From contig JAWVEY010000008.1 in assembly GCA_033856515.1 (NCBI GenBank), forward strand, positions 52,818-116,817: a stretch of DNA of 64,000 nucleotides, given 5' to 3'. The notes beneath the pieces are model-generated. The model saw only the letters and a list, made by a program, of their open reading frames with translations. It was not told the origin of the DNA and did no database searches. The stretch comes from Solirubrobacterales bacterium (GTDB taxonomy: Bacteria > Actinomycetota > Thermoleophilia > Solirubrobacterales > 70-9). Position 1 is the first letter of the stretch. Each line of letters begins with the position of its first letter. Below, one piece after another: positions 189 through 12,430 of this stretch. Position numbers and translations under genes: made by a program.

Positions 189-421
189 TTCGGTTTCACC
201 TCCACCCGCTCCGGCGAGAGCCGGCAGCGAGCGTGTCTGTAATCAGAATTCATGATGCGATTCAGTGGTTCGACTTCAAGATGCAGGCCTACATGGCCGC
301 TTCTCGCTATCCACCGATGGTAAACCCGAGCGCAAGGGCGAGGGCGCCCACGTGTGCCCGGTGACCGCGATCTATCTCCCAAGCGGTAGCCAGGCGCCCT
401 GTCGCATGTAACAATTCAGAC

Positions 422-679
422 ATGGCGTATCCCCCGTTGTGGCAGCCCGACGCGCGGCAACCTCACAGCGCATCGCGCGACTGGAGAGGGCTACTGGGCT
501 CTGGCGTCGCTGGCTTACTCACGCTGGCGATGGTCATGCTCGTCATCGCAATGATCTGGTTCTTGGTGATGGTTTTCACCGCAGACGATGACGGCCAATC
601 GGGTCCTCCACGCGGGCTCACCGGGGCGCCTGCGGGCGAGCAAGGGATCGGCCAAGCGATCCGGTCCGAGAGCCGTTAG
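422..679 (+). CDS. small hypothetical membrane protein (85 aa)
   Basis: ORF with a hydrophobic segment (LLGSGVAGLLTLAMVMLVIAMIWFLVMVF). No SD; an AACAAT-like hexamer lies 6 nt before the ATG. TAG stop 8 nt before hairpin repeat 1. Confidence 0.3.
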   Translation: MAYPPLWQPDARQPHSASRDWRGLLGSGVAGLLTLAMVMLVIAMIWFLVMVFTADDDGQSGPPRGLTGAPAGEQGIGQAIRSESR

Positions 680-685
680 GACCTG

Positions 686-711
686 TGGCGCTTTTCGTCC
701 AAAGCACTACG
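686..711 (-). repeat. stop-flanked hairpin repeat, copy 1
   Basis: Plus strand tGGCGCTTTTCGTCCAAAGCACTACg. Minus strand CGTAG-TGCTTT-GGACGA-AAAGCGCC. Lies ~55 nt 3' of the DsrE-like stop. Confidence 0.8.
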
Positions 712-767
712 TTGGCTTTCGCCCCCTCATCAGGAACGAAGCCGCCCACCCGCCTGAAACGGAGCGC

Positions 768-1058
768 TCAGTAAGTCAGCGTGGTGTCGGCCGCGGTCGC
801 GAGCTCGACCAGCTTCTGGGGCTGTGCCGGTTCCGCGCCAGCGGCGCCCACATCTACTCCCCGCGCCTTGCTCGACATGCCTGAGGCGTAGATCGGAACA
901 TGTGCCTTACGCAACGCGCTCAAGTGCTCTTCGAAGGCACCGGTCCCAACTCCGTGTGTTGCGGCTGCGGTTTCAGGTCGCAATAGCTGCACTGCGTCGC
1001 CCGCCAGGAAAACGCTTACATCGTGACCCTCGGATGCGGCCGTCTTTGCGATGAGCAT
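768..1058 (-). CDS. DsrE/DsrF-like sulfur-relay family protein
   Basis: 96-aa ORF with GHDVSVFLAGDAVQLL and YASGMSSKARG, typical of DsrE/YchN-like proteins. Family-like sequence (IATLLVHLATGPENPTRAALA) continues in frame upstream to ~1121 without ATG/GTG/TTG, so the start is uncertain. Confidence 0.6.
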   Translation of the reverse strand: MLIAKTAASEGHDVSVFLAGDAVQLLRPETAAATHGVGTGAFEEHLSALRKAHVPIYASGMSSKARGVDVGAAGAEPAQPQKLVELATAADTTLTY

Positions 1059-1148
1059 TGCCAGTGCCGCTCTCGTGGGGTTTTCTGGACCGGTTGCCAG
1101 GTGAACGAGGAGAGTTGCGATGGCGCAACCCTACCTGCGAAACGACAT

Positions 1149-1173
1149 AAGTGCTATTCGTCCAAAGCGTCTA
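1149..1173 (-). repeat. stop-flanked hairpin repeat, copy 2
   Basis: Plus strand AAGTGCTATTCGTCCAAAGCGTCTA. Directly abuts the cupin TAG stop (1174-1176), giving TAGTAG-ACGCTTTGGACGAATAGCAC on the minus strand. Confidence 0.8.
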
Positions 1174-1581
1174 CTAAAGCCAGGTGATCCCAGCTTGCTC
1201 CGACGCCTCGGCATATGCGTCGGGCCCGAGCCTGCCATCTTGATCGGCTTGGGCTAGATCTCGGAAGAACTGCTCGAAACCGCCTGGCGTAAGGACGACT
1301 AGCTCCCGTCCCTCGCCCGGGACGACACGGCGCTGAGCGTGAGGAACCCCGCGAGGCAGAAAAATCGCATCCCCGGGCCCAAGCCGAAACTCTTCTTCGC
1401 CCCGGGTGACGATGTGCTCACCCTCCAAGATGTAGAAGAGCTCATCTTCATGAGTGTGCACGTGTAGCGGGGTATCAAGCATCGGCTGACCCTCTTCGAG
1501 GATCGTGATTGCGCCGCCCGAATCCTCCGAGCTTGTCTTAACCAGGATCGTTGTCTCGCCGAAGGTGAGCTTCTCCGCCAC
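1174..1581 (-). CDS. cupin domain protein
   Basis: Cupin motifs HVHTHEDELFYILEGE and GDAIFLPRGVPH. The track ORF (to 1776) reads through hairpin copy 3, so it was trimmed to the in-frame GTG at 1581, which has TAGATT 7 nt upstream. Confidence 0.7.
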   Translation of the reverse strand: MAEKLTFGETTILVKTSSEDSGGAITILEEGQPMLDTPLHVHTHEDELFYILEGEHIVTRGEEEFRLGPGDAIFLPRGVPHAQRRVVPGEGRELVVLTPGGFEQFFRDLAQADQDGRLGPDAYAEASEQAGITWL

Positions 1582-1624
1582 GCCGGAAAATCTATGGGAG
1601 AGCGCCCCACCGTGCCAGCGCCTT

Positions 1625-1650
1625 GGGTGCTTCTCGTCCAAAGCGACTAC
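1625..1650 (-). repeat. stop-flanked hairpin repeat, copy 3
   Basis: Plus strand GGGTGCTTCTCGTCCAAAGCGACTAC. Minus strand GTAG-TCGCTTTGGACGAGAAGCACCC. Lies between the GNAT stop and the cupin start. Confidence 0.8.
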
Positions 1651-1739
1651 TCCGGCAGCCCGGCGGCTTGTACGGAACCAAGGAGGCGTTACCGGGGCGA
1701 GATTGCACGCTACGTCTACGCGGGTTGGCGCGAGGCTGC

Positions 1740-2300
1740 TTACGCCCGCACGTCGTCGGAAAGAATCGCGAAACACACCTGATCCAGGCGGCCTGTTGGG
1801 GTTTTCTCGAGGCCCCGCAGGACCCCCTCCCGTTTCAGGCCGGCTCTCTCCATCGATCGCTGGGCACCGACGTTGTCGACGCCGGTGAGTCCATAGATGC
1901 GTTCGAGCCCAAGATCCTGGAATGCAAATGAAAGCGTCAGCTCCAAGGCGCGTCGGCTCAGGCCACAGCCGCGCGACCTGGGTGCAATCCAGAAGCCTAG
2001 CTCCGCGGTGCGCTCATCCCAGTCGATGTCGAAGAGCATCGTCTGACCCGAGAGCTGGACAGCCTCAGGCTCCCAGACGCCGAGTAGTACGCCGTCACCA
2101 GCCTCCATGCGTTCGCTGTTTCGCTGAACATAGGGGCGGAGGGCCTCGTCGGTCGCGGCCAATTGTCCGTGATAGGCGCCCTGTGCGATGGCCGGGTCCT
2201 TGAATGCTTTGACGAACGCGGGGGTGTCGTCTTCGGTAATTGAACGAAGCTCAATCGATCCATCCCCCACACCCGCCCGTGGCAGGGCGATGCTTGGCAT
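1740..2300 (-). CDS. GNAT family N-acetyltransferase (RimJ/RimL-like)
   Basis: IELRSITEDD...GFWIAPRSRGCGLSRRAL...ENVGAQRSMERAGLKREGVLR is typical of GNAT. Start set at MPSIALPR; an upstream ATG at 2411 is an alternative. Confidence 0.75.
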   Translation of the reverse strand: MPSIALPRAGVGDGSIELRSITEDDTPAFVKAFKDPAIAQGAYHGQLAATDEALRPYVQRNSERMEAGDGVLLGVWEPEAVQLSGQTMLFDIDWDERTAELGFWIAPRSRGCGLSRRALELTLSFAFQDLGLERIYGLTGVDNVGAQRSMERAGLKREGVLRGLEKTPTGRLDQVCFAILSDDVRA

Positions 2301-2481
2301 TGACGGCGAGCATATCCCGGCCCCGCCGCCCAGGTTGCGCTCAAACGCTGCCGGTCCAAACGCGCATGAGCCTTGAGCTGGCCTCAGATAAACCAGTGGG
2401 GGGCCCCGCATAGGTCTTCGGCAGCGCAGCTATAGAGAAGTCGACCGCTGCCCAGCCCATACGGCGGAGACAAAACCATAT

Positions 2482-2529
2482 GACGTCTCATCTAAAGCGA
2501 CTTAGACGCTTTTCGTCCAAAGCACCTAA
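2482..2529 (-). repeat. stop-flanked hairpin repeats, tandem pair 4a/4b
   Basis: Plus strand GACGTCTCATCTAAAGCGACTTA + GACGCTTTTCGTCCAAAGCACCTAA. Unit 4b has outer arms CTTAG/CTAAG. Ends ~12 nt 3' of the stop at 2542. Confidence 0.8.
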
Positions 2530-2541
2530 GTCGAGGCTTGC

Positions 2542-3144
2542 TTATGAAATAGAGCAGTTCTCGCGGCCGAAGCCGAAAGCCGTTTCATGGGTGGTCGGCA
2601 CCTTGGAGTGCACCTGGACCGTGACCGCAACACATGTGTTCGCTTCGAAGCGGAAGCCGCCGAGAAACGGCGTCCGCCGTCCGACGCGACGGTCGCTCAC
2701 CTTGTGGTCGGGGTTGCATGGCTCAAACCGGATTGCCTCTCCGTGAGCCTCGAAGCCCCCTTGTGGTCCGCGTTGGTCGAGGCCGACGCTGAGTTCGAGA
2801 TTTCTACCCTCCGGCGAGGCAACCGTGATTGTGACCGGATTCGGAGCATCCACAAAGATGGGTGTCTTCAGTCGGTGCGGGCCCTTACGGGCGGGGAAGC
2901 GGTTGTCTGCCCATTGTTTCGCTCCGAGAAACATCACAGGTCCTGCGAACGCGCTGACCTCACGCACCTCAGGGGAAATCCGACCGGGGTGGTTCTTCGG
3001 CGGGTAAACCTGGAGCCGCGACTGGCAGTCCACGGTCGGCGGCGAATCCGGTCCCTTAGCTGCTGCTCCCCCTCGTGCGAAGAGCAGAACCGCCGCCACG
3101 ACAACAACGAAAGTTGGAAAGGCGAGTCGCCCCCGCGAACTCAT
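2542..3144 (-). CDS. hypothetical secreted/membrane-anchored protein
   Basis: ORF with N-terminal hydrophobic segment (LAFPTFVVVVAAVLLFARGGAAA). Start placed at MSSRGRL to avoid overlap with the upstream gene. No family recognised. Confidence 0.5.
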   Translation of the reverse strand: MSSRGRLAFPTFVVVVAAVLLFARGGAAAKGPDSPPTVDCQSRLQVYPPKNHPGRISPEVREVSAFAGPVMFLGAKQWADNRFPARKGPHRLKTPIFVDAPNPVTITVASPEGRNLELSVGLDQRGPQGGFEAHGEAIRFEPCNPDHKVSDRRVGRRTPFLGGFRFEANTCVAVTVQVHSKVPTTHETAFGFGRENCSIS

Positions 3145-3175
3145 CTGATCAGAGTAATCCCGCACGGACTGCTGG

Positions 3176-3673
3176 TCAACCCCAGCCGGCATTGAGGCCG
3201 ATTTCAAGCTCGGTCGTCCTCATCTCTCCGTCGGCGTGGTCGACCCAAAGCGTCACCACCGTTGAAACGTGTTCACGACCGATCCACCGCCCATTGCTCG
3301 CGTCGGGGCTGAGCTCAAGAGACCCATCCAAGAGGCCCGCCGGTTGCAAGTAGCCCGTGAAATCGCGGCCTTGGCTGAGATCGTTCTCTTTCAGTTCGAA
3401 ATCACGCCCGTCGATCTGAGCCTCAACCCGCTGGGCAGGTTCTCGCAGATAGATGGCGAGGCCGATGCGATCGCATGCGAAGTGATTTGGGGTGCGGCAC
3501 GCGACTCCCATATAGGGCTTCCGCCTTATTAGGTCATCCGCGTCGACCGCTGTTGCGTTGGGCTGCTCCCCTGGGGTCGTCGGCTCGTCAACTTGGTCGG
3601 CGTTCCCGCCCCCGCAACCCGCCGTCGCGATAAAAGGCAAGACAGCCAAGAGAACGAAACGTCTGGTGGTCAC
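3176..3673 (-). CDS. hypothetical lipoprotein
   Basis: GTG start. Lipobox-like signal MTTRRFVLLAVLPFIATAGC followed by GGG. No family recognised. Confidence 0.6.
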   Translation of the reverse strand: MTTRRFVLLAVLPFIATAGCGGGNADQVDEPTTPGEQPNATAVDADDLIRRKPYMGVACRTPNHFACDRIGLAIYLREPAQRVEAQIDGRDFELKENDLSQGRDFTGYLQPAGLLDGSLELSPDASNGRWIGREHVSTVVTLWVDHADGEMRTTELEIGLNAGWG

Positions 3674-3763
3674 AGCGTCTTAAATACGGCGCAGGGAGGC
3701 TTAGAAGTCCACCGGATGCAGACCTTAAATAGGCACTAGTGCCCGAAACCGCTTAACGGCTTA

Positions 3764-3787
3764 GGTGCTTTTCGTCCAAAGCGCTAC
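3764..3787 (-). repeat. stop-flanked hairpin repeat, copy 5
   Basis: Plus strand GGTGCTTTTCGTCCAAAGCGCTAC, preceded by CTTA. Minus strand GTAG-CGCTTTGGACGAAAAGCACC. Lies 8 nt 3' of the SnoaL-1 TAG stop. Confidence 0.8.
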
Positions 3788-3794
3788 TTCTGAG

Positions 3795-4211
3795 CTACTC
3801 CGCCTGACCGCCGGCTTCAAGAGCCTTCTTCCGGTCGATGTACGTTTCGACCCGCACGACCTCTCCTCCGCGCAGCGTGCAGATCTGTGCGAGTTCAAGC
3901 TCCGCCGCCGCCCCACTACTCACGCCTCGGCCCCGTTGGCGCGACAAGGCGATCACCTGATCCCCGTGGTCGATCAGCTCGTCGACTGCAACCTCCCACT
4001 CCTCGAAGGGAAACGACCCGAACCAATCCTCTTCGAAGAATGCCCTGATCTGGTCGTGCCCGCGATAGACGCCGAGCCCTGCAATGTCGCTCAGGGAGAA
4101 GTCGAAAACGATCTCAGGCGCCCAGATGCCTGCGCTGATGACCGCCTGGGGTCCACCGGCGTTGAACAACTCGTAGCCTCGACGGATTAGCTCGACGTTC
4201 TCCTGAGACAT
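3795..4211 (-). CDS. NTF2/SnoaL-like (ketosteroid isomerase-like) protein, paralogue 1
   Basis: MSQENVELIRRGYELFNAGG... is a typical SnoaL-like N-terminus and the size (138 aa) fits. Paralogous to 10748-11152 and 11216-11638. Confidence 0.75.
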   Translation of the reverse strand: MSQENVELIRRGYELFNAGGPQAVISAGIWAPEIVFDFSLSDIAGLGVYRGHDQIRAFFEEDWFGSFPFEEWEVAVDELIDHGDQVIALSRQRGRGVSSGAAAELELAQICTLRGGEVVRVETYIDRKKALEAGGQAE

Positions 4212-4242
4212 CGCCCGCGCAGTATCGCGCGATCAAGAGGTA

Positions 4243-4264
4243 GATGCTTTCCATGCAAAGCGTC
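4243..4264 (-). repeat. hairpin repeat, loop variant (CCATGC), copy 6
   Basis: Plus strand GATGCTTTCCATGCAAAGCGTC. Lies ~32-53 nt upstream of the SnoaL-1 ATG. The same variant occurs upstream of SnoaL-3. Confidence 0.7.
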
Positions 4265-4338
4265 TTTCTAGCTCGTGTGTACAAAACGTTTCGCTGAGCG
4301 GGAGCGGATGAACACAGGCGACATGATCTGCCGCCTAG

Positions 4339-4356
4339 GCGATTTGCAAAGCACCT
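4339..4356 (-). repeat. possible decayed hairpin repeat just 3' of recX
   Basis: Plus strand GGCGATTTGCAAAGCACC keeps the GCG.TTT...AAAGCAC arms but the loop is collapsed. Lies 13 nt 3' of the recX TGA. Confidence 0.35.
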
Positions 4357-4368
4357 TTCTTGAGGCGC

Positions 4369-4830
4369 TCAGGCTGCGCGACGCTCGGCGAGCCGCACCG
4401 CCGCGTAGGCGACCTCGAGCTCGTACCCGCGGCGCGCAAGGAAAGCGAGCGCTCGGCCCCGCCCAGAGTCGTCGTCGAGGTCGTCGTTTCGCCGATCGAG
4501 CAGGTCTGCTGCCCGCTCAGCGAGCTCATCCTGGCTCTCCCCGCCCGCCGCCGCCTCGGCGATGGAGCGGGCCACGCCCTTCTCGACGAGCGCCTCGCGG
4601 ATCCTGCCCGGGCCCCAGCCGTTGAGCTCGCGCTTGTCCTGCGCGAAGAGCGAGGCGTAGCGCTCGTCGTCCAGCTGGCCGATCTCGACGAGGCGCTCAA
4701 TGGCCTCCTCGGCCTCGGCCGGGTCCGCCTCGCGCTTGGCCAGCCAGGCGCGCAACTCCGCGACCGTGTGCTCCCGGCGCGAGAGCGCTCGGAGCGATAA
4801 CTCGAAAGCGCTCTTCTTTCGCCCAGCCAT
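4369..4830 (-). CDS. recX: recombination regulator RecX
   Basis: Immediately downstream of recA. Repeated helical modules (VAELRAWLAKREADPAEAEEAIERLVEIGQLDDERYA) are typical of RecX. Confidence 0.85.
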   Translation of the reverse strand: MAGRKKSAFELSLRALSRREHTVAELRAWLAKREADPAEAEEAIERLVEIGQLDDERYASLFAQDKRELNGWGPGRIREALVEKGVARSIAEAAAGGESQDELAERAADLLDRRNDDLDDDSGRGRALAFLARRGYELEVAYAAVRLAERRAA

Positions 4831-4848
4831 GGACGCAGCCCGCGTGGG

Positions 4849-5985
4849 CTACGCCGCTTGGCGCTCGGGCTCGGCGTCCTCGTCGGCGACCGCGGCCGGA
4901 GCTTCCTCGCCGGCATCGGGCGCGTCGGGTACCGCCGCGATCGGGCGCGGGGCGCGATCGATCTCGAGGAGCGAGAAGATCTTCGTCTCGATCTCCTGCG
5001 CCAGCTCGGGGTTCTCGGCCAGATAGCCCTTGGTGTTGTTCCGCCCCTGGCCGAGCCTGAGCTCGCCGTAGGAGAAGAAGGAACCGGACTTCTGGATCAG
5101 GTCGTGCTCGAGCGCGAGGTCGAGGAGACAGCCCTCGTGAGAGATGCCCACGCCGTACTCGATGTCGAACTCGGCCTGGCGGAACGGCGGCGCGACCTTG
5201 TTCTTCACGACCTTGATGCGGACCCTGTTGCCGACCGCCTCGGTGCCCTCCTTGAGGGTCTCGATGCGGCGGATGTCGAGGCGCTGCGACGAGTAGAACT
5301 TGAGCGCCCGGCCACCCGGCTGCGTCTCGGGCGAGCCGAAGGTGACGCCGATCTTCTCGCGGATCTGGTTCGTGAACAGGCAGACGGTGTTGGCGCGGTT
5401 GAGGTTGCCCGCGAGCTTTCGCATCGCCTGGGACATCATTCGCGCCTGGAGGCCGACCGACTGGTCGCCCATCTGGCCCTCCAGCTCGACGCGCGGGGTC
5501 AGCGCCGCAACGGAGTCGATGGCGATGACGTCGACCGCGCCCGAGCGCACCAGGACGTCGACGATCTCGAGCGCCTGCTCCCCATAGTCCGGCTGGGAGA
5601 TCAGAAGCTCGTCCGTGTTGAGCCCGATGCGGCGGGCATAGACCGGGTCGAGGGCGTGCTCAGCGTCGATGAACGCGCAGACGCCACCCCGGGCCTGGGC
5701 CTCGGCCATGATGTGGTAGACGAGCGTCGTCTTGCCCGACGACTCCGGGCCGAAGATCTCGATCACGCGGCCGCGCGGGACGCCGCCGACGCCTAGCGCC
5801 AAGTCGAGCGATAGGGCCCCAGTGGGGATCGCCTCGACCGAGAGGGCGTTGTCGTCGCTCAAAGTCATCAGCGAGCCGGCGCCGAACTCCTTCTCGATGT
5901 GGATCTTGGCGGCGTCGAGCGCGGCCGTGCGGGCCTTCGCTTCCTTCTCCGCCGCCTTCTGGTCTGCCTTCGTTTGTTCAGCCAT
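4849..5985 (-). CDS. recA: recombinase RecA
   Basis: Walker [28 protein letters not shown]; full-length RecA with an acidic C-terminal tail. Confidence 0.98.
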
Positions 5986-5994
5986 CTCTACGAG

Positions 5995-6579
5995 TCACCT
6001 CAAGTCAATGTTGTGGATCGGCACGTACTGCGAGCCATCGCGCCGCATCATCGAACGGTAAAGAGAGAGTCGGACAGCAAGGAACTCGCCCCCCAACTCC
6101 TCGGGGAGCGGGCCAGGAGCCCGTCTGACGCGCTCTGGGCGCCTCCGGCGTTGTCCGCCCTTCCCCCTCCCCGCACGCACGCGAGCGACCGTCAGGTGCG
6201 GCCAGAACGGGCGCTTTTCGTCCTTCGCGAGGCCGAGCTCACGGAACGCGGCGCTGACCTCCAGCGCGAGCTCTACCGCCCCAGGCGTCACCGCCTCGAC
6301 GGCGAAGAGCGAAGGTCGCCGGGGTGGCTTTGCGACTACGTCTCTCTCCAGCCGGATCGGCACGGGTCGCGGTGTGACCGCCGCGACGACCTCGGTCGCT
6401 TCGGAGAGCCGGTCCGGCGGGGTCCAGCCCAGAAAGCAAAGGGTCATGTGGAGGTTTGCGGTCGGGACCGGCCGTAACGCTGGATCGGTCAGTTCCCGCG
6501 AGCCCCACGCTTCAAGGCCACCTCTGATCACGTCCGGCAGGTCGATTGCGGCGAAGAGGCGAACGGCCTTATCGCTCAC
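5995..6579 (-). CDS. thpR: RNA 2',3'-cyclic phosphodiesterase (2'-5' RNA ligase family, ThpR/LigT)
   Basis: Two HxT/S motifs of the 2H phosphoesterase fold (HMTLCFLG and HLTVARV). Size 194 aa. Confidence 0.8.
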   Translation of the reverse strand: MSDKAVRLFAAIDLPDVIRGGLEAWGSRELTDPALRPVPTANLHMTLCFLGWTPPDRLSEATEVVAAVTPRPVPIRLERDVVAKPPRRPSLFAVEAVTPGAVELALEVSAAFRELGLAKDEKRPFWPHLTVARVRAGRGKGGQRRRRPERVRRAPGPLPEELGGEFLAVRLSLYRSMMRRDGSQYVPIHNIDLR

Positions 6580-6582
6580 CGC

Positions 6583-7683
6583 CTACCCCACCTCGCGCAA
6601 GAAGCCCACGAGGTCCCGGGCGAGGAGCTCAGGCTCCTCCCAAGCCGCGAAGTGGCCGCCGCGCTCGTGCTCGGTCCACTGGCGGAGATCGCCGAGCGTG
6701 CGCTCGGCCCACTCGCGCGGCGGGTGGAGGATCTCCTGCGGGAAGTCCGCGACGGCGGCCGGAACGCTGATCTTCTCCCCCGCGCCGAGCTTCCAGCGGT
6801 CGCGAGCCTCGGCCGCATACAGGCGGATCGAGGTCGAGATCGTGCCCGTCGCCCAGTAGATCGTCAGGAAGTCGCAGAGCTGGTCGAGCGTGAAGCGCGT
6901 CTCGACGTCGCCTCCGCAGTCGGACCAGTCGCGGTATTTCGAGACGAGCCACGCCGCGAGGCCGGCTGGCGAGTCGTTGAGCGCGGGCGCGAGCGTGTCG
7001 GGGACGCCGCCCTGCGTGAGCATGTAGTGGGCACCGCGCGTGCGCCACTTGATGGCCTTTGCCAGCCACGCTTGCTCGGCATCCGTCAAGTCCGATCGGT
7101 CCGCGGGGAACGGCAGCACGGATGGGGAGTTGATGTGGAGCGCCGAGACACGCTCGGGCGAGTCGTAGGCCATCCGCGCCGCGATGAGCGTTCCCCAGTC
7201 GCCGCCCTGGACGACGTAGCGCTCGATGCCGAGGCCGTCCTCGACGAGCGCGCGAAGGCGTGCGGCCATGCCCGAGCCGTTTAGCGGCTCATCCGGCGCA
7301 TCCGAGAAGCCATAGCCGGGAAGTGACGGCGCGATGACCTCGTGTCCCGCCTCGACGAGAAGCGGGATCAGGCGCTCGAACTCCAGCACCGCTCCCGGCC
7401 ATCCGTGCACGAGCACGATCGGCGGGCCGGTCTCCTCCCCCGCCCGGATGAAGTGAACGCCCTCCCATATCCCTTGCTCGAACTCGTTCAGCCGGCTCTC
7501 AGACGCCCGCCAGTCATAGTCGGAGGCCCAGTGCTCACACAGGCGCCGCAGGAATCCCTGGTCCATCCCGTACTCCCAGCCGATGTCAGCAGCTTCAGGC
7601 CAGCGGGTTCGCTCCAAGCGCCCGCGGAGGTCGTCGAGGATCGCCTCATCGACCGAGATCTCGTAGGCGGACGGCTTCGCCAA
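6583..7683 (-). CDS. epoxide hydrolase (alpha/beta hydrolase with N-terminal EHN domain)
   Basis: N-terminal ISVDEAILDDLRGRLERTRWP, HGWPG oxyanion motif, GGDWG nucleophile elbow. Confidence 0.8.
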   Translation of the reverse strand: MAKPSAYEISVDEAILDDLRGRLERTRWPEAADIGWEYGMDQGFLRRLCEHWASDYDWRASESRLNEFEQGIWEGVHFIRAGEETGPPIVLVHGWPGAVLEFERLIPLLVEAGHEVIAPSLPGYGFSDAPDEPLNGSGMAARLRALVEDGLGIERYVVQGGDWGTLIAARMAYDSPERVSALHINSPSVLPFPADRSDLTDAEQAWLAKAIKWRTRGAHYMLTQGGVPDTLAPALNDSPAGLAAWLVSKYRDWSDCGGDVETRFTLDQLCDFLTIYWATGTISTSIRLYAAEARDRWKLGAGEKISVPAAVADFPQEILHPPREWAERTLGDLRQWTEHERGGHFAAWEEPELLARDLVGFLREVG

Positions 7684-7687
7684 GGCG

Positions 7688-8995
7688 CTAAAGCGGGAAG
7701 TCCTCGCCCAGGAGGAGGCGCCGAGTCAGGTGCATCGCGAGGAGCGCCGAGCGCTCACGCACGTCCGCTCGCGTCCCTGGCATGACGGGATCGCGGGCGA
7801 TCATCTGCCCGTCAGCGGTCTTTACGCACACGCAGACGTAGCCGACGGGCTTCTCCTCGGTGCCACCCGAGGGCCCGGCGATGCCCGTGATGCCGACGGC
7901 GATGTCCGCGTCGTACTGCTCGAGCGCGCCGTCAGCCATCGCCTCCGCGACCTCGGGCGAGACGGCTCCGTGCTCGGCGATCCGCTCGGCCGGAACGCCC
8001 AGCACCTTGGTCTTCGACTCGTTCGTGTAGGTCACCGCGCCACCCATGACGTACGCAGAGGCTCCATCGAGCTCCGTCAGGCGAGCCGCGAGAAGCCCGC
8101 CGGTGCAAGACTCGGCCGTCGCGATCCGATGCCCCGCGAGGAGGTTCGCCAGCTGCGAATCGATCGTCTCGCCGTCGCGGCTGAAGAGGAACCGGCCGTG
8201 ACGCTTGTCGATGCCCGCAATCAGCTGCGCGAGCGCCTCCTCGGCACCCGGGCGGTGGCGCACTTCGATCTCGAGCTCCCCCTTGCGGAGGCAGGTGGTG
8301 ATCTCGAGCTGGTCGATTGCAACGCCCTCGTCCTCGATCTCGCGAAGGCTCTTGGCGATCTCGGACTCGGGAATGCCGAAGAGGCGCAGCATCACGCCCA
8401 AGTACGGCTCGGCCCGTTCCAAGACGGTGCGGACGAGGTCCGTCGCGACCGCCTTTGGCCACATTGCGTGAAGCTCGCGTGGCGGCCCCGGCATCACGAC
8501 CACGACGGGCCCATCGTCGACAGGGACGACCAGCCCGGGCGCGGTGCCCGCCGGGTCGATGAGCGTGGAGCCCTTGGGCACCACGGCCTGCTTCCGGTTC
8601 GCCTCGCGTAGCGCCTCCGGATCGAAATTGAGCCGGCGAGCGAAGCTCGCGAGGATCTTCGCGATCTTCTCCTCCATGCCCTCGTCGAGCACCATCTCGC
8701 GCCCGGCGAACTTGCCTACGACCTGCGCGGTGAGGTCGTCAGCCGTAGGCCCCAGGCCTCCGCTGGTGACGATCAGGTCCATGCCGTCATCGCCAAGGAA
8801 CCGGAGGGCCTGTTCGAGGTCTGACGGCCGGTCGCCGACGACGACGATGTGGGAGACCTCCACCCCGCGCCCGGCGAGCTCCTGCGAGATCCACGGCCCG
8901 TTCTTGTCCTGGATCGTGCCTGTGATGACCTCCGTGCCGGTCACGACGATCCCCGCGCGCACGGGTTTGACGTCAGCTTCACTCACGGCGCCCAC
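7688..8995 (-). CDS. cinA: competence/damage-inducible protein CinA (MoCF-binding + nicotinamide-nucleotide amidase domains)
   Basis: N-terminal GIVVTGTEVITGTIQDKNG...TSGGLGPTADD and C-terminal PncC-like ESCTGGLLAARLT. Confidence 0.9.
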   Translation of the reverse strand: MGAVSEADVKPVRAGIVVTGTEVITGTIQDKNGPWISQELAGRGVEVSHIVVVGDRPSDLEQALRFLGDDGMDLIVTSGGLGPTADDLTAQVVGKFAGREMVLDEGMEEKIAKILASFARRLNFDPEALREANRKQAVVPKGSTLIDPAGTAPGLVVPVDDGPVVVVMPGPPRELHAMWPKAVATDLVRTVLERAEPYLGVMLRLFGIPESEIAKSLREIEDEGVAIDQLEITTCLRKGELEIEVRHRPGAEEALAQLIAGIDKRHGRFLFSRDGETIDSQLANLLAGHRIATAESCTGGLLAARLTELDGASAYVMGGAVTYTNESKTKVLGVPAERIAEHGAVSPEVAEAMADGALEQYDADIAVGITGIAGPSGGTEEKPVGYVCVCVKTADGQMIARDPVMPGTRADVRERSALLAMHLTRRLLLGEDFPL

Positions 8996-9025
8996 TCTAC
9001 GGAGGGCTCACCGCGGCGCGAGGGC

Positions 9026-10039
9026 TCAGGGCGCGATACCGAGACCTAGCGGGTTGTCGAAGCCGGATCCGTTCACGAGGGTCAGGTCCCCGTTCTTCAA
9101 GTTGACCTCGTAGAGCTCCGCGGGAAACACCCTGGTGACGTATGCCGTCTGCTTGTTCGCCACCGCCAGGCCAGCGGGCACGACACCGCTGCTCTTGAAG
9201 ATCGTCTTTGCTTTCCCGGTGTCGAGGTCGACTCGGAACATCGCGCCGGTGTAGTTGAACGCTCCGCTGTCGATCACCACGGCGCTGTGCTTGCTCTCGG
9301 AATCGACGTCCCCGAGGTCCTCGAGGTCGGGGAAGTCGCCCTTGCCTGCAATCACCTTCTGCTTCCCCGAGCTCAGGTCTACCTGGATCAGGCCGCCTCT
9401 GAGTCTGAGGTTGCTCTTGCTGCTGCCGGCGTCGGCGACGAGCGCATTTGACAAGCCGGTGTCGATGCCAAGCGGGTCGCCGATGTTCTTCCCGCCGCTG
9501 AGGAGCGACTGCTTGCCGGTCGTGAGGTTCACTTTGACCACGCGCGAGGGCTTGCCGCCAAAGTCGGTCACGTAGGCGTTGTTGCCCTTGCAGTCGATCG
9601 CGATCGGGTCAGCGAAGCGCTCCTCTCCACCGGCGGCGTCCGATATCGCGTTGTTGGAAACGACGGACTGGGCGCCGGTGATCTTGTCGATGCGGATCAC
9701 GCCCCCGTCGTCGCCGAACGCATCGCGGTCAACGACGAGGATGTTGCCGTCACCGTCGAATGCGATGCCCGCGGGGAACACGAAATTACCGCCGGTTGAT
9801 ACAGGGACCTTGACCCCGGTTTCGGGGTTGACAGCTTCGACCTGCTGGTCCAGAGAATCGGCGACGATGATGTCGCCTGAGTTCCAGAATGCGGGCGCGC
9901 CCTGGCTCGTGCTGGGCCCCCAGATCACCGCAACTCCGAGCGCGAAAACCAGCCCCGCGATCAGCTTCCCCTTGCCCTTGCGCGCCGTCCCTGTCATCAA
10001 GCCCTCCGTTGCTTTCGATCCACGCTGAACTCGGAGCAT
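9026..10039 (-). CDS. secreted beta-propeller (NHL-like repeat) protein
   Basis: Signal-like N-terminus (KLIAGLVFALGVAVIWG) and recurring blade-like segments (PAGIAFDGDGNILVVD, PIAIDCKGNNAYVTD, PLGIDTGLSNALVAD). Confidence 0.6.
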   Translation of the reverse strand: MLRVQRGSKATEGLMTGTARKGKGKLIAGLVFALGVAVIWGPSTSQGAPAFWNSGDIIVADSLDQQVEAVNPETGVKVPVSTGGNFVFPAGIAFDGDGNILVVDRDAFGDDGGVIRIDKITGAQSVVSNNAISDAAGGEERFADPIAIDCKGNNAYVTDFGGKPSRVVKVNLTTGKQSLLSGGKNIGDPLGIDTGLSNALVADAGSSKSNLRLRGGLIQVDLSSGKQKVIAGKGDFPDLEDLGDVDSESKHSAVVIDSGAFNYTGAMFRVDLDTGKAKTIFKSSGVVPAGLAVANKQTAYVTRVFPAELYEVNLKNGDLTLVNGSGFDNPLGLGIAP

Positions 10040-10046
10040 AAACCCC

Positions 10047-10556
10047 CTAGCTCAGGCGGCTCCGAGAGACGCTGAGCTCAGGCGATGCTGAGAGCGTCTG
10101 CAGAACGACGCAGTAGCGCTCGGTCAGTTTGATGAGCGTGTCGAGTTGCTCCTCGTCGGCATCCGTTTCGAGCTCGAACGCAAGCGAGATGGCCGAGAAG
10201 CCCACGGCCGCCTCGCGGTCGACTGCAAGAGTGCCCCTGAAGTCAAGGACGCCGTCCGCCTTGACCGTCCCACCCTCCACCGGGATCTCGAGCGATGTAG
10301 CAACGGAGCGAAGCGTCACACCCGCGCAGGCAGCCAGGGCCTCGAGCAGCATGTCGCCGGAGCACAACTGGGTCCCGTCGCCGCCCGTCGCGGGGTGAAG
10401 CCCGGCCTCCGCGATCGCGCGCCCGGTCTCGACGGAGCAGGAGATCCCCTCGCCCAGCGAGGCCTTTGCCGAAAGCGTGATCAAAGCGGCGTCCGGGTCT
10501 TCCTTGTAGCGCTCCTTGAGCGGCGCCTGTTTTTCCTGAAGCTCTGCTCGGTTCAA
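10047..10556 (-). CDS. OsmC family peroxiredoxin-like protein
   Basis: CSGDMLLEALAACAG and the C-terminal TERYCVV motif are typical of OsmC/Ohr. The track ORF was trimmed to the in-frame TTG at 10556, which has GAGAGGG upstream. Confidence 0.75.
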   Translation of the reverse strand: MNRAELQEKQAPLKERYKEDPDAALITLSAKASLGEGISCSVETGRAIAEAGLHPATGGDGTQLCSGDMLLEALAACAGVTLRSVATSLEIPVEGGTVKADGVLDFRGTLAVDREAAVGFSAISLAFELETDADEEQLDTLIKLTERYCVVLQTLSASPELSVSRSRLS

Positions 10557-10615
10557 AGTTCTCAGCCCTCTCGAGTCGTGAGCACCCCACGGTAGCCGCG
10601 CGATAATCCTCAGGG

Positions 10616-10702
10616 ATGCCCGAGAGGAACGTCGAGACAATTCGCGAGATCTACGCGCGCTGGGGCGAAGAGGCGCTCGCAGCAATCGGCCTCGCGAACT
10701 AG
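10616..10702 (+). pseudogene. 5' fragment of a SnoaL-like gene, inverted relative to its paralogues, truncated at the hairpin repeat
   Basis: ATG..TAG encodes MPERNVETIREIYARWGEEALAAIGLAN. The first ~16 aa match the N-termini of the three SnoaL paralogues. GATAAT lies 8 nt before the ATG, as in the paralogues. The TAG is the CTAG edge of repeat 7a. Confidence 0.5.
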
Positions 10703-10750
10703 GCGCTTCTCATCCGAAGCGGACTAGCGCTTTTTCGTCCAAAGCACCTA
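10700..10750 (-). repeat. stop-flanked hairpin repeats, tandem pair 7a/7b
   Basis: Plus strand TAGGCGCTTCTCATCCGAAGCGGACTA + GCGCTTTTTCGTCCAAAGCACCTA. Unit 7a has stem GCTTC/GAAGC (a paired change). CTA 10748-10750 is the SnoaL-2 stop codon. Confidence 0.8.
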
Positions 10751-11152
10751 GTTCGATAGTCCCGCCGCTTCAATGGCCTTCGCTACGTCCGTAGTAATGA
10801 GGAGGTGCTCGATTTGGTCACCCCGAAATCGGGCGACTGCCGCGGCCTCGACGTCAAACGGAACGCCGCTTCCCCGTCCGCGGCCCCGGAAGCGGCCGAC
10901 GGCAAGGACGCAGTCGCCAACGTCGCGAAACTGCTCGGCCGACGCGGTCATGGAGTCCCAACTGTCATCCAATGCCGCAAGCCACTCTGCAGCTGCGTCG
11001 CGGCCCGCGTAGGCGGTATTACCTTCCAGTGCCGCTCGTATCGGAACGATCTCGACGTTGGGCGCAAGAAGCATCTCGAGCGCCTCTAGGTCGCGGCGGT
11101 TGACTGCCTCGATGACAGCACGCAGCCTTTCAACGTTCCCATCTGGCATCAC
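10748..11152 (-). CDS. NTF2/SnoaL-like protein, paralogue 2
   Basis: (V)MPDGNVERLRAVIEAVNRRDLEAL... is SnoaL-like. The start is GTG 11152 or ATG 11149. Confidence 0.7.
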   Translation of the reverse strand: MMPDGNVERLRAVIEAVNRRDLEALEMLLAPNVEIVPIRAALEGNTAYAGRDAAAEWLAALDDSWDSMTASAEQFRDVGDCVLAVGRFRGRGRGSGVPFDVEAAAVARFRGDQIEHLLITTDVAKAIEAAGLSN

Positions 11153-11194
11153 CCGGCAGTATCACTCAAGAACAGTCGCTTTCGATAGGGAATA

Positions 11195-11218
11195 AACGCT
11201 TCTCGTCCAAAGCGCCTA
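11195..11218 (-). repeat. stop-flanked hairpin repeat, copy 8
   Basis: Plus strand AACGCTTCTCGTCCAAAGCGCCTA. CTA 11216-11218 is the SnoaL-3 stop codon. Minus strand GTAG-GCGCTTTGGACGAGAAGCGTT. Confidence 0.8.
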
Positions 11219-11638
11219 CTCCAAGAGCCCGGAGGCGTCGAGGGCGGCTGTCTGCCTCGGATAGAACTTCCAACGAGACATCAGACCCGCTTTGAAGGTG
11301 GCGACCTGCGCGTATTTCCCCCCGACCACCTCGATACCCGAGGAAAGCCCACGCATGGTCTGATCGAGCAGCATGACCACTCGATCACCGGCGTCGAGGA
11401 GCTCGTAGGCGAACTCGCTGGTTTCCCAAGCGCCGAGCCAGTTCCGCCAAAACGCGCTCACCTCTTCCTTGCCCCGATAGATGCCAGCCAGGCCCGGCAC
11501 GCCGAGTTCAGAGGCATCCCATTCGATTTCCGGGTCCCAGAGCGCGGTCGCCCTGGTGAGCCAGCCCTCCCAATCGGACCCGCTCGCGAGGAAGTCCTCG
11601 ATGGAGGCCCGCCACAGTTCCACGTTCTCTTCCGACAT
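11216..11638 (-). CDS. NTF2/SnoaL-like protein, paralogue 3
   Basis: MSEENVELWRASIEDFLASG... Its N-terminus and 5' leader are near-identical to paralogue 1. Confidence 0.75.
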   Translation of the reverse strand: MSEENVELWRASIEDFLASGSDWEGWLTRATALWDPEIEWDASELGVPGLAGIYRGKEEVSAFWRNWLGAWETSEFAYELLDAGDRVVMLLDQTMRGLSSGIEVVGGKYAQVATFKAGLMSRWKFYPRQTAALDASGLLE

Positions 11639-11671
11639 CGCCCGCGCAGTATCTCGCGACTCAGAGACTTA

Positions 11672-11696
11672 TGTGCTTTCCATGCAAAGCGCCTAT
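11672..11696 (-). repeat. hairpin repeat, loop variant (CCATGC), copy 9
   Basis: Plus strand TGTGCTTTCCATGCAAAGCGCCTAT. Lies ~34-58 nt upstream of the SnoaL-3 ATG. Confidence 0.7.
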
Positions 11697-11746
11697 AGCC
11701 GAGCTTTCCTCGCGGTCCGTACGTCGCGAGCGTAAGGTTCGCGCTG

Positions 11747-12430
11747 ATGCCCGATCCCACCGCCGGCCCGAAGGCGCAGAGCGCACCCGAGCTGAAAGCC
11801 CAGATCGAGGCCGAGCGCGAAGGGCGTCCGTTTCTCGTCTACCGCGATGGCGCCGGCCAGCAGGTGATCCTCCCGATCCAAGAGGGGGCCACCGAGCTGT
11901 GGGTGGGCCGGCGCGAGGTGGCCGACATCCGCCTCGACTTCGACGAGGAGGTCTCGGGCCTCCACGCCCAGATCGAGTTCGTCGGCGGTGACGGCACGCT
12001 CGTGGACGACGGCCTTTCGCGCAACGGCTCCTATGTCAACGGCGAGCGGGTCCGCGGCCGCAAGGTGCTCCGCGACGGCGACGTGATGCGCTTCGGGCGC
12101 TCCCTCGTGCTCTTTCGCGCGCCAGGTGGAGAAAGCGCCGAGGCCACCGTGATCTCGGCCGACCTCCTGGACGCCGGCGGCATCTCCCCCGCTCAGCGCC
12201 GCGTCCTAATCGCCCTCTGCCGCCCCTACAAGGACGGCGCGTCCTTTGCTACCCCGGCTTCCAACAGCCAGATCGGCGACGAGCTCCATCTGTCGGTCGA
12301 CGCCGTCAAGACCCATCTGCGAGCGCTGTTCGAGAAGTTCGACGTCACCGACCTGCCCCAGAACCGCAAGCGGGTGGCTCTCGTCGAACGCGCGCTGCAG
12401 ACCGGAATGGTCAGCGAGCGCGATCTGTAG
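11747..12430 (+). CDS. FHA domain / LuxR(GerE)-type HTH fusion regulator
   Basis: FHA core (WVGRREVADIRLDFDEEVSGLHAQIEF...GSYVNGERV...GDVMRFG) plus C-terminal HTH (SNSQIGDELHLSVDAVKTHLRALFEKF). Confidence 0.8.
   Translation: MPDPTAGPKAQSAPELKAQIEAEREGRPFLVYRDGAGQQVILPIQEGATELWVGRREVADIRLDFDEEVSGLHAQIEFVGGDGTLVDDGLSRNGSYVNGERVRGRKVLRDGDVMRFGRSLVLFRAPGGESAEATVISADLLDAGGISPAQRRVLIALCRPYKDGASFATPASNSQIGDELHLSVDAVKTHLRALFEKFDVTDLPQNRKRVALVERALQTGMVSERDL

Follow-up and report, generated by a model that had tools for sequence, protein, structure and literature searches.

The 64,000-nucleotide stretch analysed here (the window; Solirubrobacterales bacterium, assembly GCA_033856515.1, contig JAWVEY010000008.1, positions 52,818 to 116,817) carries a family of short hairpin repeats that falls into two classes, H1 and H2. 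The repeats are restricted to islands of accessory genes, coincide with the borders of the gene modules that make up these islands, and are used as targets by insertion sequences (IS) of the IS110 family. We give about an even chance to the reading in which H1 and H2 serve accessory-gene modules of the layout (H2)-gene(s)-H1 as border or recombination sites, and in which an enzyme recognises them as folded single strands and joins DNA at the foot of the hairpin. An initial annotation of this sequence had compared the hairpins with repetitive extragenic palindromes (REP) handled by REP-associated tyrosine transposases (RAYT). The module-border behaviour, which it missed, is closer to that of cassette borders than to that of dispersed REPs.

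The hairpins of the window form two arrays. Array A (686-4360) is located between recX and rny, and array B (10697-11698) between an OsmC gene and a divergent FHA/GerE regulator gene. A search with the plus-strand core GCTTYTCRTCCAAAGC, allowing up to 2 mismatches, gave 10 matches, all on the plus strand and all inside 690-11690; the expected number was 0.10, and none of 100 shuffled sequences reached 10. A covariance model built from 81 distinct copies was run on the whole window with the filters off. It returned seven strong H1 copies, all on the minus strand and within 682-11221, and scored the two copies with a GCATGG loop only weakly. In the remaining 52 kb (12-64 kb), which hold core genes, it found no credible copy. 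The twelve units listed in the initial annotation are all present, ten of them through the pattern search and those at 2482-2498 and 4339-4356 by eye, and the single orientation and the emptiness of the rest of the window hold as described there.

On the gene (minus) strand the H1 consensus is TAG-NN-GCTTT-GGACGA-RAAGC-NN-CTA, the window unit reading (G)TAG-N1-2-GCTTT-GGACGA-RAAGC. H2 is GCTTT-GCATGG-AAAGC. Only two loop sequences are common on GCTTT/AAAGC stems, GGACGA in H1 and GCATGG in H2; the GCTTTGCATGGAAAGC copies, previously taken for a loop variant, are a separate second class and not a variant of H1. The H1 copies lie at 682-713 (core 690-705, loop GGACGA; 35.3 bits, E 6e-7), 1145-1176 (core 1153-1168; 30 bits), 1621-1652 (core 1629-1644; 35.6 bits), 2498-2533 (core 2508-2523; 37.7 bits), 3759-3790 (core 3767-3782; 37.3 bits), 10721-10753 (core 10729-10745, with a 1-nt insertion; 26.5 bits) and 11190-11221 (core 11198-11213; 41.5 bits), all on the minus strand like the hairpins that follow. 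Five copies, at 690, 1153, 1629, 3767 and 11198, have an exact GTAG head, which agrees with the number given initially. The copy at 2498-2533 has a stem extended to 15 bp by CTTAG/CTAAG arms (-12.1 kcal/mol, z -4.1). It is followed after 9 nt by a degenerate second hairpin, GCTTTAGATGAGACG (2482-2498), which takes the position of H2 in other genomes. The second hairpin of the other tandem pair, 10697-10728 (core 10705-10720), stands 8 nt after H1 10721-10753 and reads GCTTC GGATGA GAAGC on the gene strand, which bears out the paired stem change reported before. H2 copies are located at 4238-4269 (core 4246-4261, loop GCATGG) and at 11667-11698 (core 11675-11690), the latter being the 5′ border of array B. 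A decayed H2-like copy at 4339-4356 directly follows the recX stop; it reads GGTGCTTTGCAAATCGCC in the window and GGTGCTTTGCATGGCGCC in the near-identical strain L122.

The family was scanned in one genome per species (596 Gb). At least 120 loci matched, and all family counts given here are drawn from the matches listed. Among these, 42 loci are labelled Solirubrobacterales, Thermoleophilaceae, Solirubrobacteraceae or Baekduia, and in seven further loci the label is absent or stops at the phylum. Six of these seven hold several copies, are filed as "uncultured bacterium" and have a GC content of 0.62-0.67; the seventh, from Actinomycetota, holds one copy and has a GC content of 0.69. The remaining matches listed are single occurrences in unrelated taxa; about 1100 chance matches are predicted for a 16-mer of fourfold degeneracy in 596 Gb. 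At least 111 H1 and at least 72 H2 copies were counted in about 49 Thermoleophilia loci and the window, both classes being common in the metagenome-assembled genomes (MAGs) of Solirubrobacterales and Thermoleophilaceae. The motif is multi-copy beyond this window, and inside it the copies far exceed the chance number. H2 follows H1 directly on the same strand in 33 of 108 H1 copies, with a gap of exactly 8-9 nt in 24 of the 33, and the two tandem pairs of the window show the same 8-nt and 9-nt spacing. The sites are co-oriented in both window arrays and in most arrays elsewhere, and inverted neighbouring hairpins are rare (L078, L094). In viral contigs, 78 single H1 and 16 single H2 matches were found, which is about the chance number, and none had an outer stem or a suitable context; thus, H1 and H2 are not phage-borne. 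A literature search with the core string returned unrelated primers only and no description of this family.

The outer pairs of H1 covary, with TAGCC/GGCTA, TAGCT/AGCTA, TAGGC/GCCTA, TAGGT/ACCTA and TAGTC/GACTA all occurring. Paired stem cells make up 81.6% of the H1 alignment versus 77.6% after shuffling, and none of 500 shuffles came as high. The covariation score is 0.263, compared with at most 0.134 for controls with slid partners, and the three pairs adjoining the core show 13, 17 and 4 double changes. The covariation expected from a real stem is hence found across the copies, and through the covarying outer pairs the stem reaches 8-11 bp and not the 5-7 bp assigned initially. At the fifth core pair, 60 copies have T.G and 41 have T-A. 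The gene-strand form is more stable than its complement both for H1 (-12.9 versus -10.4 kcal/mol, p 3.5e-6) and for H2 (-11.5 versus -10.3 kcal/mol, p 7.5e-4), which indicates that folding takes place on one strand.

A metagenome search with RecX gave seven related loci, and no credible H1 was found in any of the seven contigs. In five of them (RecX 47-79% identical) rny stands directly after recX, at a distance of 200-430 nt, and the rny promoter region is recognisably conserved with that of the window; in the other two, recX is followed by miaB and there is no rny homologue. Since five relatives have recX next to rny without H1, the arrays are regarded as insertions. The entire block holding array B is absent from L123, and this locus carries a homologue (61% at the amino acid level) of the second unknown-function gene of array A (3176-3511/3673) between ftsK and cinA.

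The position of the junctions can be seen where homology breaks off. The contig L122 (2.2 kb, from another sample) has an identical RecA and a 96.7% identical RecX, and its identity with the window is about 97% across recX, the decayed copy and the H2 at 4238-4269. Identity stops after AAAGC(G/A)TCTA, at the 3′ foot of this H2. The right arm retains its complementarity to the left arm TAGAC in either strain, so that the break is placed at the foot of the hairpin and not in its loop. The novel sequence beyond H2 in L122 has no relative among the fetched loci; exact-protein look-ups with FHA/GerE, OsmC and SnoaL identified the same array B in L226 and otherwise gave the source contig or no match. 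The segments L082 4577-5179 and L109 7137-7733 are 92.6% identical over a stretch that begins with the H2 core and ends a few bases beyond the next H1. Outside it the two loci are unrelated: upstream in their genes, in the outer arms of H1 and in the 9-nt linker, and likewise in the DNA downstream. The enclosed Polyketide_cyc2 gene lies on the strand opposite its border hairpins. L033 has the DsrE unit of the window (768-1175) as well, with 77% identity; there it is preceded by a SnoaL gene and not by the cupin gene of the window. Its homology begins 10-25 nt after the upstream H1, and each copy has its own H1 at the end. A csp-containing unit of two open reading frames (ORFs), common to L094 and L097 (89%), starts with an H2-like hairpin and ends with H1. 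Because homology in the shared modules ends at the hairpins and the flanks are unrelated, we take (H2)-gene(s)-H1 to be the recurring unit. Over all pairwise locus matches, homology ends within 10 nt of a hairpin in 11% of cases versus 2% at random. The three module comparisons (L082/L109, DsrE and csp) set different MAGs against one another, mostly as long contigs. A related observation concerns L028 (~2810-2818) and L119 (~5294-5302), in which a common 1.28-kb segment (93%) ends at AAGTAGCTA. This sequence resembles two outer arms (TAG..CTA) without a core and may be an empty or collapsed site.

The cargo of the modules is varied and dominated by one family. SnoaL_2 is matched by 22 of the 49 coding-like ORFs whose end lies just 5′ of an H1; the other families adjoining H1 are TauE, MsrA, RTX repeats, beta-lactamase, methyltransferase, RibD_C, DsrE, BNR_2 and CMD, and cupin and GNAT come in addition from the window. 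For about 30 of the 72 H2 copies counted, the conserved string CGCGAGATACTGCGTGGGCG-ATG-TCG-GAG-GAG-AAC, the start of a SnoaL gene, stands 14-24 nt farther on. Directly ahead of SnoaL-family ATG codons stands CGCGAGATACTGCG(T/C)GGGCG, in the window at 4212-4226, 11639-11653 and ~11153-11163, and it is kept across genomes and at many H2-flanked loci. Judging from its position and sequence, the GATACT motif would be a -10-like element for a leaderless or nearly leaderless transcript, which suggests one promoter type common to the whole SnoaL paralogue family. H2 was also considered as the -35 element of this promoter and was rejected, as the spacing from H2 to GATACT varies between 14 and 24 nt.

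The H1 loop is split at one identical point by IS110-family elements (DEDD_Tnp_IS110 and Transposase_20) in three MAG loci, L054 3399-4703, L103 4808-6102 and L064 6710-8000. The junctions read GCTTTG-GAC, then TGCCATGAAGAAGG at the left end, and CCTTCTTCATAGA-GAC, then GAGAAGC at the right end, with GAC at both; the right end is also found written as CTTCTTCATAGA-GAC followed by GAGAAGC, and the two H1 halves as GCTTTGGAC/GAGAAGC. A second IS110 type, 83% identical between L068 (~3613-4992) and L086 (~1743-3117), abuts GCTTTGCATGGAA, the left part of H2, and a SnoaL promoter and gene start lie past its other end. Members of the IS110 family target REPs (PMC1525189, PMC11208160), and an IS110/IS1111-family sub-group targets attC sites (PMC11187229).

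The targeting by IS110 is one of the features which the hairpins share with classical REPs. In that explanation the hairpins themselves would be mobile, a single-copy Y1 (HUH) transposase copying them to intergenic sites, and the genes would be bystanders. We consider it clearly unlikely, although a good part of the initial comparison has stood: the repeats are a real, lineage-specific, multi-copy family of short imperfect palindromes with strand bias, a preference for gene 3′ ends and covariation. A TAG head occurs at a fixed 2-nt gap in 39 of 108 H1 copies, and GTAG in 22 of 108 (20%), the background probability of a TAG within the 6-nt window being 2%. Single hairpins also seem to appear and disappear, an H1 standing before H2 in L097 and not in L094, and the distance from H1 to the DsrE stop is unequal in the two DsrE units. 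RAYTs occur in many bacterial classes (PMC5581495). Other parts have not stood. The GTAG head is not invariant and base-pairs within the stem with the 3′ CTA, which is present in 39 copies, and TAG is also the commonest stop codon in these loci. The usual pair is a direct H1-H2 tandem and not the inverted REP doublet (REPIN), and no copy is found in the 52 kb of core sequence, including its intergenic regions. A phmmer search with a single query, Escherichia coli RayT from NC_000913.3, against 8780 six-frame ORFs from about 1 Mb of fetched DNA, about 400 kb of it around hairpins, gave no match at E<=10.

To the enzyme search, the source genome contributed about 74 kb and other genomes 8-kb fragments. 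Among 295 ORFs of loci with hairpins, a PHROGs census detected two integrase-family ORFs, four IS110 matches and one other transposase, and no RAYT. The integrase ORFs, L005 1-651 and L032 3748-4389, have no consistent position relative to the arrays. The latter, a Pfam-confirmed Phage_integrase gene, lies between oppositely oriented hairpin-bounded genes, and no other integrase was seen inside an array; in this MAG the hairpins have the GCTTC/GAAGC form of the stem. For the 128-amino-acid ORF between the inverted H1 copies of L078, Pfam gave no match. A dedicated enzyme, if there is one, would be encoded elsewhere in the genome, and a Y1/HUH enzyme, a tyrosine recombinase and a domesticated IS110-type recombinase are the candidates.

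Several observations weigh against H1 and H2 as recombination sites of modules. Among the 295 ORFs near hairpins, no recombinase or transposase is consistently linked to the arrays. The SnoaL modules carry their own promoter-like motif (GATACT-N9-ATG) and are for this reason not promoterless cassettes. The break in L122 is seen in a short metagenome contig, where a mis-join at a repeat is possible, and breakpoints near gene ends are partly expected anyway, since the spacers are short. No circular or excised form of a module was seen. The copy numbers of the family scan are lower bounds and not genome-wide totals. Several of the core hairpins in the window have little stability as DNA (-2 to -6 kcal/mol, z about 0), and only the extended ones, 2498-2533 and the pair 10694-10756, stand out; accordingly, it is the sequence that is conserved and not stability alone. 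Lastly, ordinary homologous recombination between the repeats would give similar breakpoints, because the repeats themselves are conserved. For the fixed length of the junction and the invariance of the loops, it is a poorer explanation than site-specific cutting would be.

The location of H1 at gene ends raises the question of a function in RNA. The genes ending at 1174, 10748 and 11216 have their stop codons (TAG at 1174-1176, 10748-10750 and 11216-11218) inside the outer stems of the hairpins 1145-1176, 10721-10753 and 11190-11221, in agreement with the initial remark that the TAG head is, or abuts, the stop in these three cases. For 42 of 108 H1 copies, the 60 nt on the 5′ side contain the end of a coding-like ORF of the same strand; for the opposite strand this holds in 16 of 108 (approximate counts). 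These counts were redone with stricter ORF criteria, because gene calls based on the GC content at third codon positions (GC3) are unreliable in low-GC3 islands, where shadow ORFs arise. H1 thus prefers the sense orientation at gene 3′ ends, though not exclusively, and the suspected bias in orientation and stop-codon position is present. The long coding ORFs of the 49 Thermoleophilia loci and the window end with TAG in 87 cases, TGA in 83 and TAA in 12; TAG is therefore as frequent as TGA, against expectation, for TGA should dominate the stops in a genome of 67% GC.

On the RNA-level explanation, H1 and H2 would be 3′-end, stabiliser, processing or insulator signals of transcripts, possibly protein-bound, in a co-regulated accessory family. 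They would have spread with their genes by duplication and transfer, the module borders being a by-product. Binding of the GGA-containing loops in the manner of CsrA would be a speculative option. Besides the strand preference and the stops within the stem, this is favoured by G.U pairs that suit the sense strand, by a median RNA folding energy of about -13 kcal/mol, and by the SnoaL paralogues, which share H2, a conserved leaderless-type promoter and a 3′ H1. Nevertheless, we regard it as rather unlikely to be the primary function. As the initial annotation had stated, no copy is followed by a T-run, and the terminator scan of the window called 6 sites versus 7.6 expected, none of them at the hairpins. 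An intrinsic terminator has a GC-rich hairpin and a U-tract, whereas here the stem is AT-rich and the 3′ flank has the consensus RGCNRTYC. Mycobacterial RNA polymerase needs the U-tract (PMC3993855), a requirement that may not apply to Thermoleophilia. A terminator needs no invariant loop and stem sequence, and no core gene of the window has the element. One shared module (L082/L109) has its gene opposite the border hairpins, and the 8-9 nt between H1 and H2 are fixed across unrelated module pairs. No Rfam family matches, the gathering mode returning only a tRNA-Arg in the window and the E-value mode nothing at the hairpins over 400-12000. A secondary RNA role of H1 and H2 is plausible.

The geometry of the sites, 10 + 6 + 10 bp with an asymmetric invariant centre and exactly two classes, also invites comparison with duplex sites of tyrosine recombinases. 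Acinetobacter plasmids contain dif modules flanked by pdif (XerC/XerD) sites (PMC6449649, PMC13141974), and these sites are targeted by dedicated insertion sequences (PMC10132070). On this model H1 and H2 would be crossed over in the 6-bp centre between inverted arms of about 10 bp, and the two loop classes would be two incompatible crossovers. The site architecture, the small accessory modules that the sites flank and the dedicated insertion sequences aimed at them all agree with it, and the weak hairpin energies would suit recognition as duplex DNA. The model is nonetheless very unlikely. The outer arms covary, which contradicts a central crossover, as such a crossover would shuffle left and right arms. 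Between L121 and L122 the entire right arm stays with the conserved side, the array sites are direct and not alternating repeats, and no adjoining recombinase was found in the census near the arrays. To our knowledge, H1 and H2 have no sequence resemblance to the known dif consensus.

For the preferred reading, that of module borders joined at the hairpin foot, the following course can be proposed. The repeat would fold as a strand-specific hairpin in single-stranded DNA, and an enzyme encoded elsewhere in the genome would recognise the invariant 5-bp stem and the 6-nt loop and would cut and join at the foot of the hairpin. Cutting at the foot would leave whole hairpins with one side of the junction and would fix the length from H1 to H2 at 8-9 nt. 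Modules stack head to tail into arrays inserted between core genes, as at recX/rny and at the OsmC and FHA-GerE genes, and the junctions of their gain, loss and exchange lie at the hairpins. In transcripts, the hairpins probably serve as 3′-end or insulating structures as well.

The window as a whole is a core region in which ftsK, cinA, recA and recX were identified; from the lengths and order of the ORFs, further genes are read as nusA-infB-pnp and neighbours. The arrays have a GC content of 0.61 versus 0.68 in the adjoining core, and the GC3 of their genes is 0.66-0.80 versus 0.84-0.93 for core genes. The GC skew over the 64 kb is too noisy to give the direction of replication. Read along the minus strand, array A consists of the decayed H2, H2, SnoaL_2-H1, two unknown-function genes with H1 and the degenerate hairpin, the GNAT gene, a relic SnoaL C-terminus with H1, cupin-H1 and DsrE-H1. 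Its genes are all on the minus strand. The first module is the SnoaL_2 gene (3795-4211), with the promoter-like GATACT at 4221-4226, 9 nt ahead of the ATG. In the spacer between H1 3759-3790 and the next gene lies a perfect 12-bp palindrome, GGCACTAGTGCC (3732-3743), whose sequence is unrelated to H1 and H2. The two unknown-function genes (2542-3192 and 3176-3511/3673; together 2542-3673) are counted as one module. They are followed by the GNAT acetyltransferase gene (module 4, 1740-2300), the Cupin_2 gene (module 5, 1174-1641) and the DsrE-family gene (module 6, 768-1130).

The frame of the DsrE gene is open from TAG 1131-1133, and its first ATG is at 1058. Between 1059 and 1133 (minus strand) it matches L033 at the protein level, with GC(A/V)IATLL(V/I)HLATGPENPTRAALAML starting right after the TAG. 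No ATG, GTG or TTG stands ahead of the ATG at 1058, and an in-frame ATC is kept in the window and in L033; the start codon may thus be non-canonical. Ahead of the rny promoter region, array A ends with the hairpin H1 682-713, which lies between the convergent DsrE gene and a small plus-strand ORF (422-679). This ORF of 85 amino acids contains a hydrophobic stretch, converges on the last H1 and belongs to the inserted segment upstream of the rny promoter. It has no match in Pfam, and the Joint Genome Institute (JGI) gene caller has a 49-amino-acid ORF on the other strand of this region instead.

Array B reads, on the minus strand, H2, SnoaL_2, H1, a second SnoaL_2, H1 and the GGATGA hairpin. 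Its genes are a SnoaL_2 gene (11216-11638, minus strand), with GATACT at 11648-11653, 9 nt ahead of the ATG, and a SnoaL_2/DUF4440 gene (10748-11152, minus strand). Two relics of SnoaL genes were found. In array A, the SnoaL-family C-terminus VQAAGLPE* (1647-1673, minus strand; TAG 1647-1649) is fused to H1 1621-1652 behind the GNAT gene, without a SnoaL gene upstream, and its 5′ flank AAGCCGCCGGGCTG.CGGAGTAG is the same as in about 25 copies in other genomes. Next to array B, a plus-strand mini-ORF (10616-10702), read from the sequence only as MPERNVETIREIYARWGE-EALAAIGLAN*, joins a SnoaL N-terminus to a SnoaL C-terminus in 28 codons, and its final TAG abuts the hairpin pair. The two relics suggest repeated deletion or replacement inside modules.

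Cassette-type gene capture and REP-type repeats are described mainly in Proteobacteria, and we know of little work on how the genomes of the abundant, barely cultured soil Thermoleophilia are reshaped. The repeat family described here is specific to this lineage. It is near in kind to REPs, attC cassettes and dif modules and fails some defining tests of each. With the REP/REPIN-RAYT systems of Enterobacteria, Pseudomonas and Stenotrophomonas it shares short imperfect palindromes that are lineage-specific, multi-copy and often placed just after stop codons, a TAG/GTAG-like 5′ head in many copies and targeting by the IS110 family. It differs in that the GTAG of H1 and H2 is variable and part of the stem, that the tandems are direct, and that the hairpins are confined to accessory islands, where they delimit modules. 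The terminator-like hairpins of conserved sequence known as TRIT in Mycobacterium tuberculosis, another actinobacterial case (PMC3152330), are likewise lineage-specific conserved stem-loops at gene 3′ ends without a canonical U-tract. In contrast to these, H1 and H2 are absent from core genes, fall into two classes that stand in tandem at a fixed distance, and are located where mobile modules have their borders. The ends of IS200/IS605-type elements and of palindrome-associated transposable elements (PATEs) resemble H1 and H2 as left and right subterminal hairpins with the same stem that bracket cargo, act strand-specifically and are kept whole. However, no TnpA/TnpB gene was seen near H1 and H2, and the L121/L122 junction lies 3′ of H2 and not 5′.

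The closest parallels are found among gene-module systems. Like integron cassettes, including those in clusters of attC sites lacking integron-integrases (CALINs), the arrays described here line up small, diverse, compositionally atypical genes, each with a folded palindromic site after it. As in attC, the junction coincides with the 3′ foot of the folded site, where the L121/L122 homology stops, and the shared modules end just past H1. The two kinds of site also have in common a strand asymmetry, targeting by an IS110/IS1111 sub-group, and a stem with covarying pairs next to conserved boxes, the inner stem being the covarying part in attC. Yet attC sites are 57 nt or more (57-141 bp) and have R''-L''...L'-R' boxes and the GTTRRRY core, whereas H1 and H2 have 26-32 nt, an invariant GCTTT/AAAGC stem and loop, and no GTTRRRY. 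No intI, attI or Pc was found at the window arrays, whose neighbours are recX and rny in one case and the OsmC and FHA-GerE genes in the other, and no integrase is consistently near the arrays elsewhere; one may be encoded at a distance. Integron cassettes are mostly promoterless, single-ORF and co-oriented; the H1/H2 modules have their own promoter, may hold several genes or a reversed gene, and have H2 at the 5′ border. The pdif sites are similar in their size of about 28 bp, with inverted arms and a 6-bp centre, in flanking accessory modules that are shuffled between replicons and genomes, and in being targets of dedicated insertion sequences. The Xer-site geometry of ~11-bp arms and a 6-bp centre fits H1 and H2, but covariation and the junction at the foot oppose a central crossover. 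Moreover, H1 and H2 are chromosomal, direct and not alternating, and have covarying arms and two centre classes. We would put forward only tentatively, as a possibility still short of probable, that H1 and H2 mark the right and the left ends, respectively, in an undescribed hairpin-dependent gene-module system of Thermoleophilia, with fixed-sequence sites of 26-32 nt and with modules that have their own promoters and are dispersed as mini-arrays between core genes. With the IS110 elements aimed at its loop, H1 adds a natural target of bridge-RNA recombinases from a phylum new to them. Were the hairpins active at the RNA level only, they would still be a new family of sequence-specific 3′-end elements in a lineage where canonical terminators are scarce. 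If they are recombination borders, they would offer a compact sequence tag for accessory modules in Thermoleophilia metagenomes, point to a new hairpin-recognising enzyme and explain the large expansion of SnoaL-like paralogues. Should the undescribed module system prove true, it would be a functional parallel to integron cassettes or dif modules.

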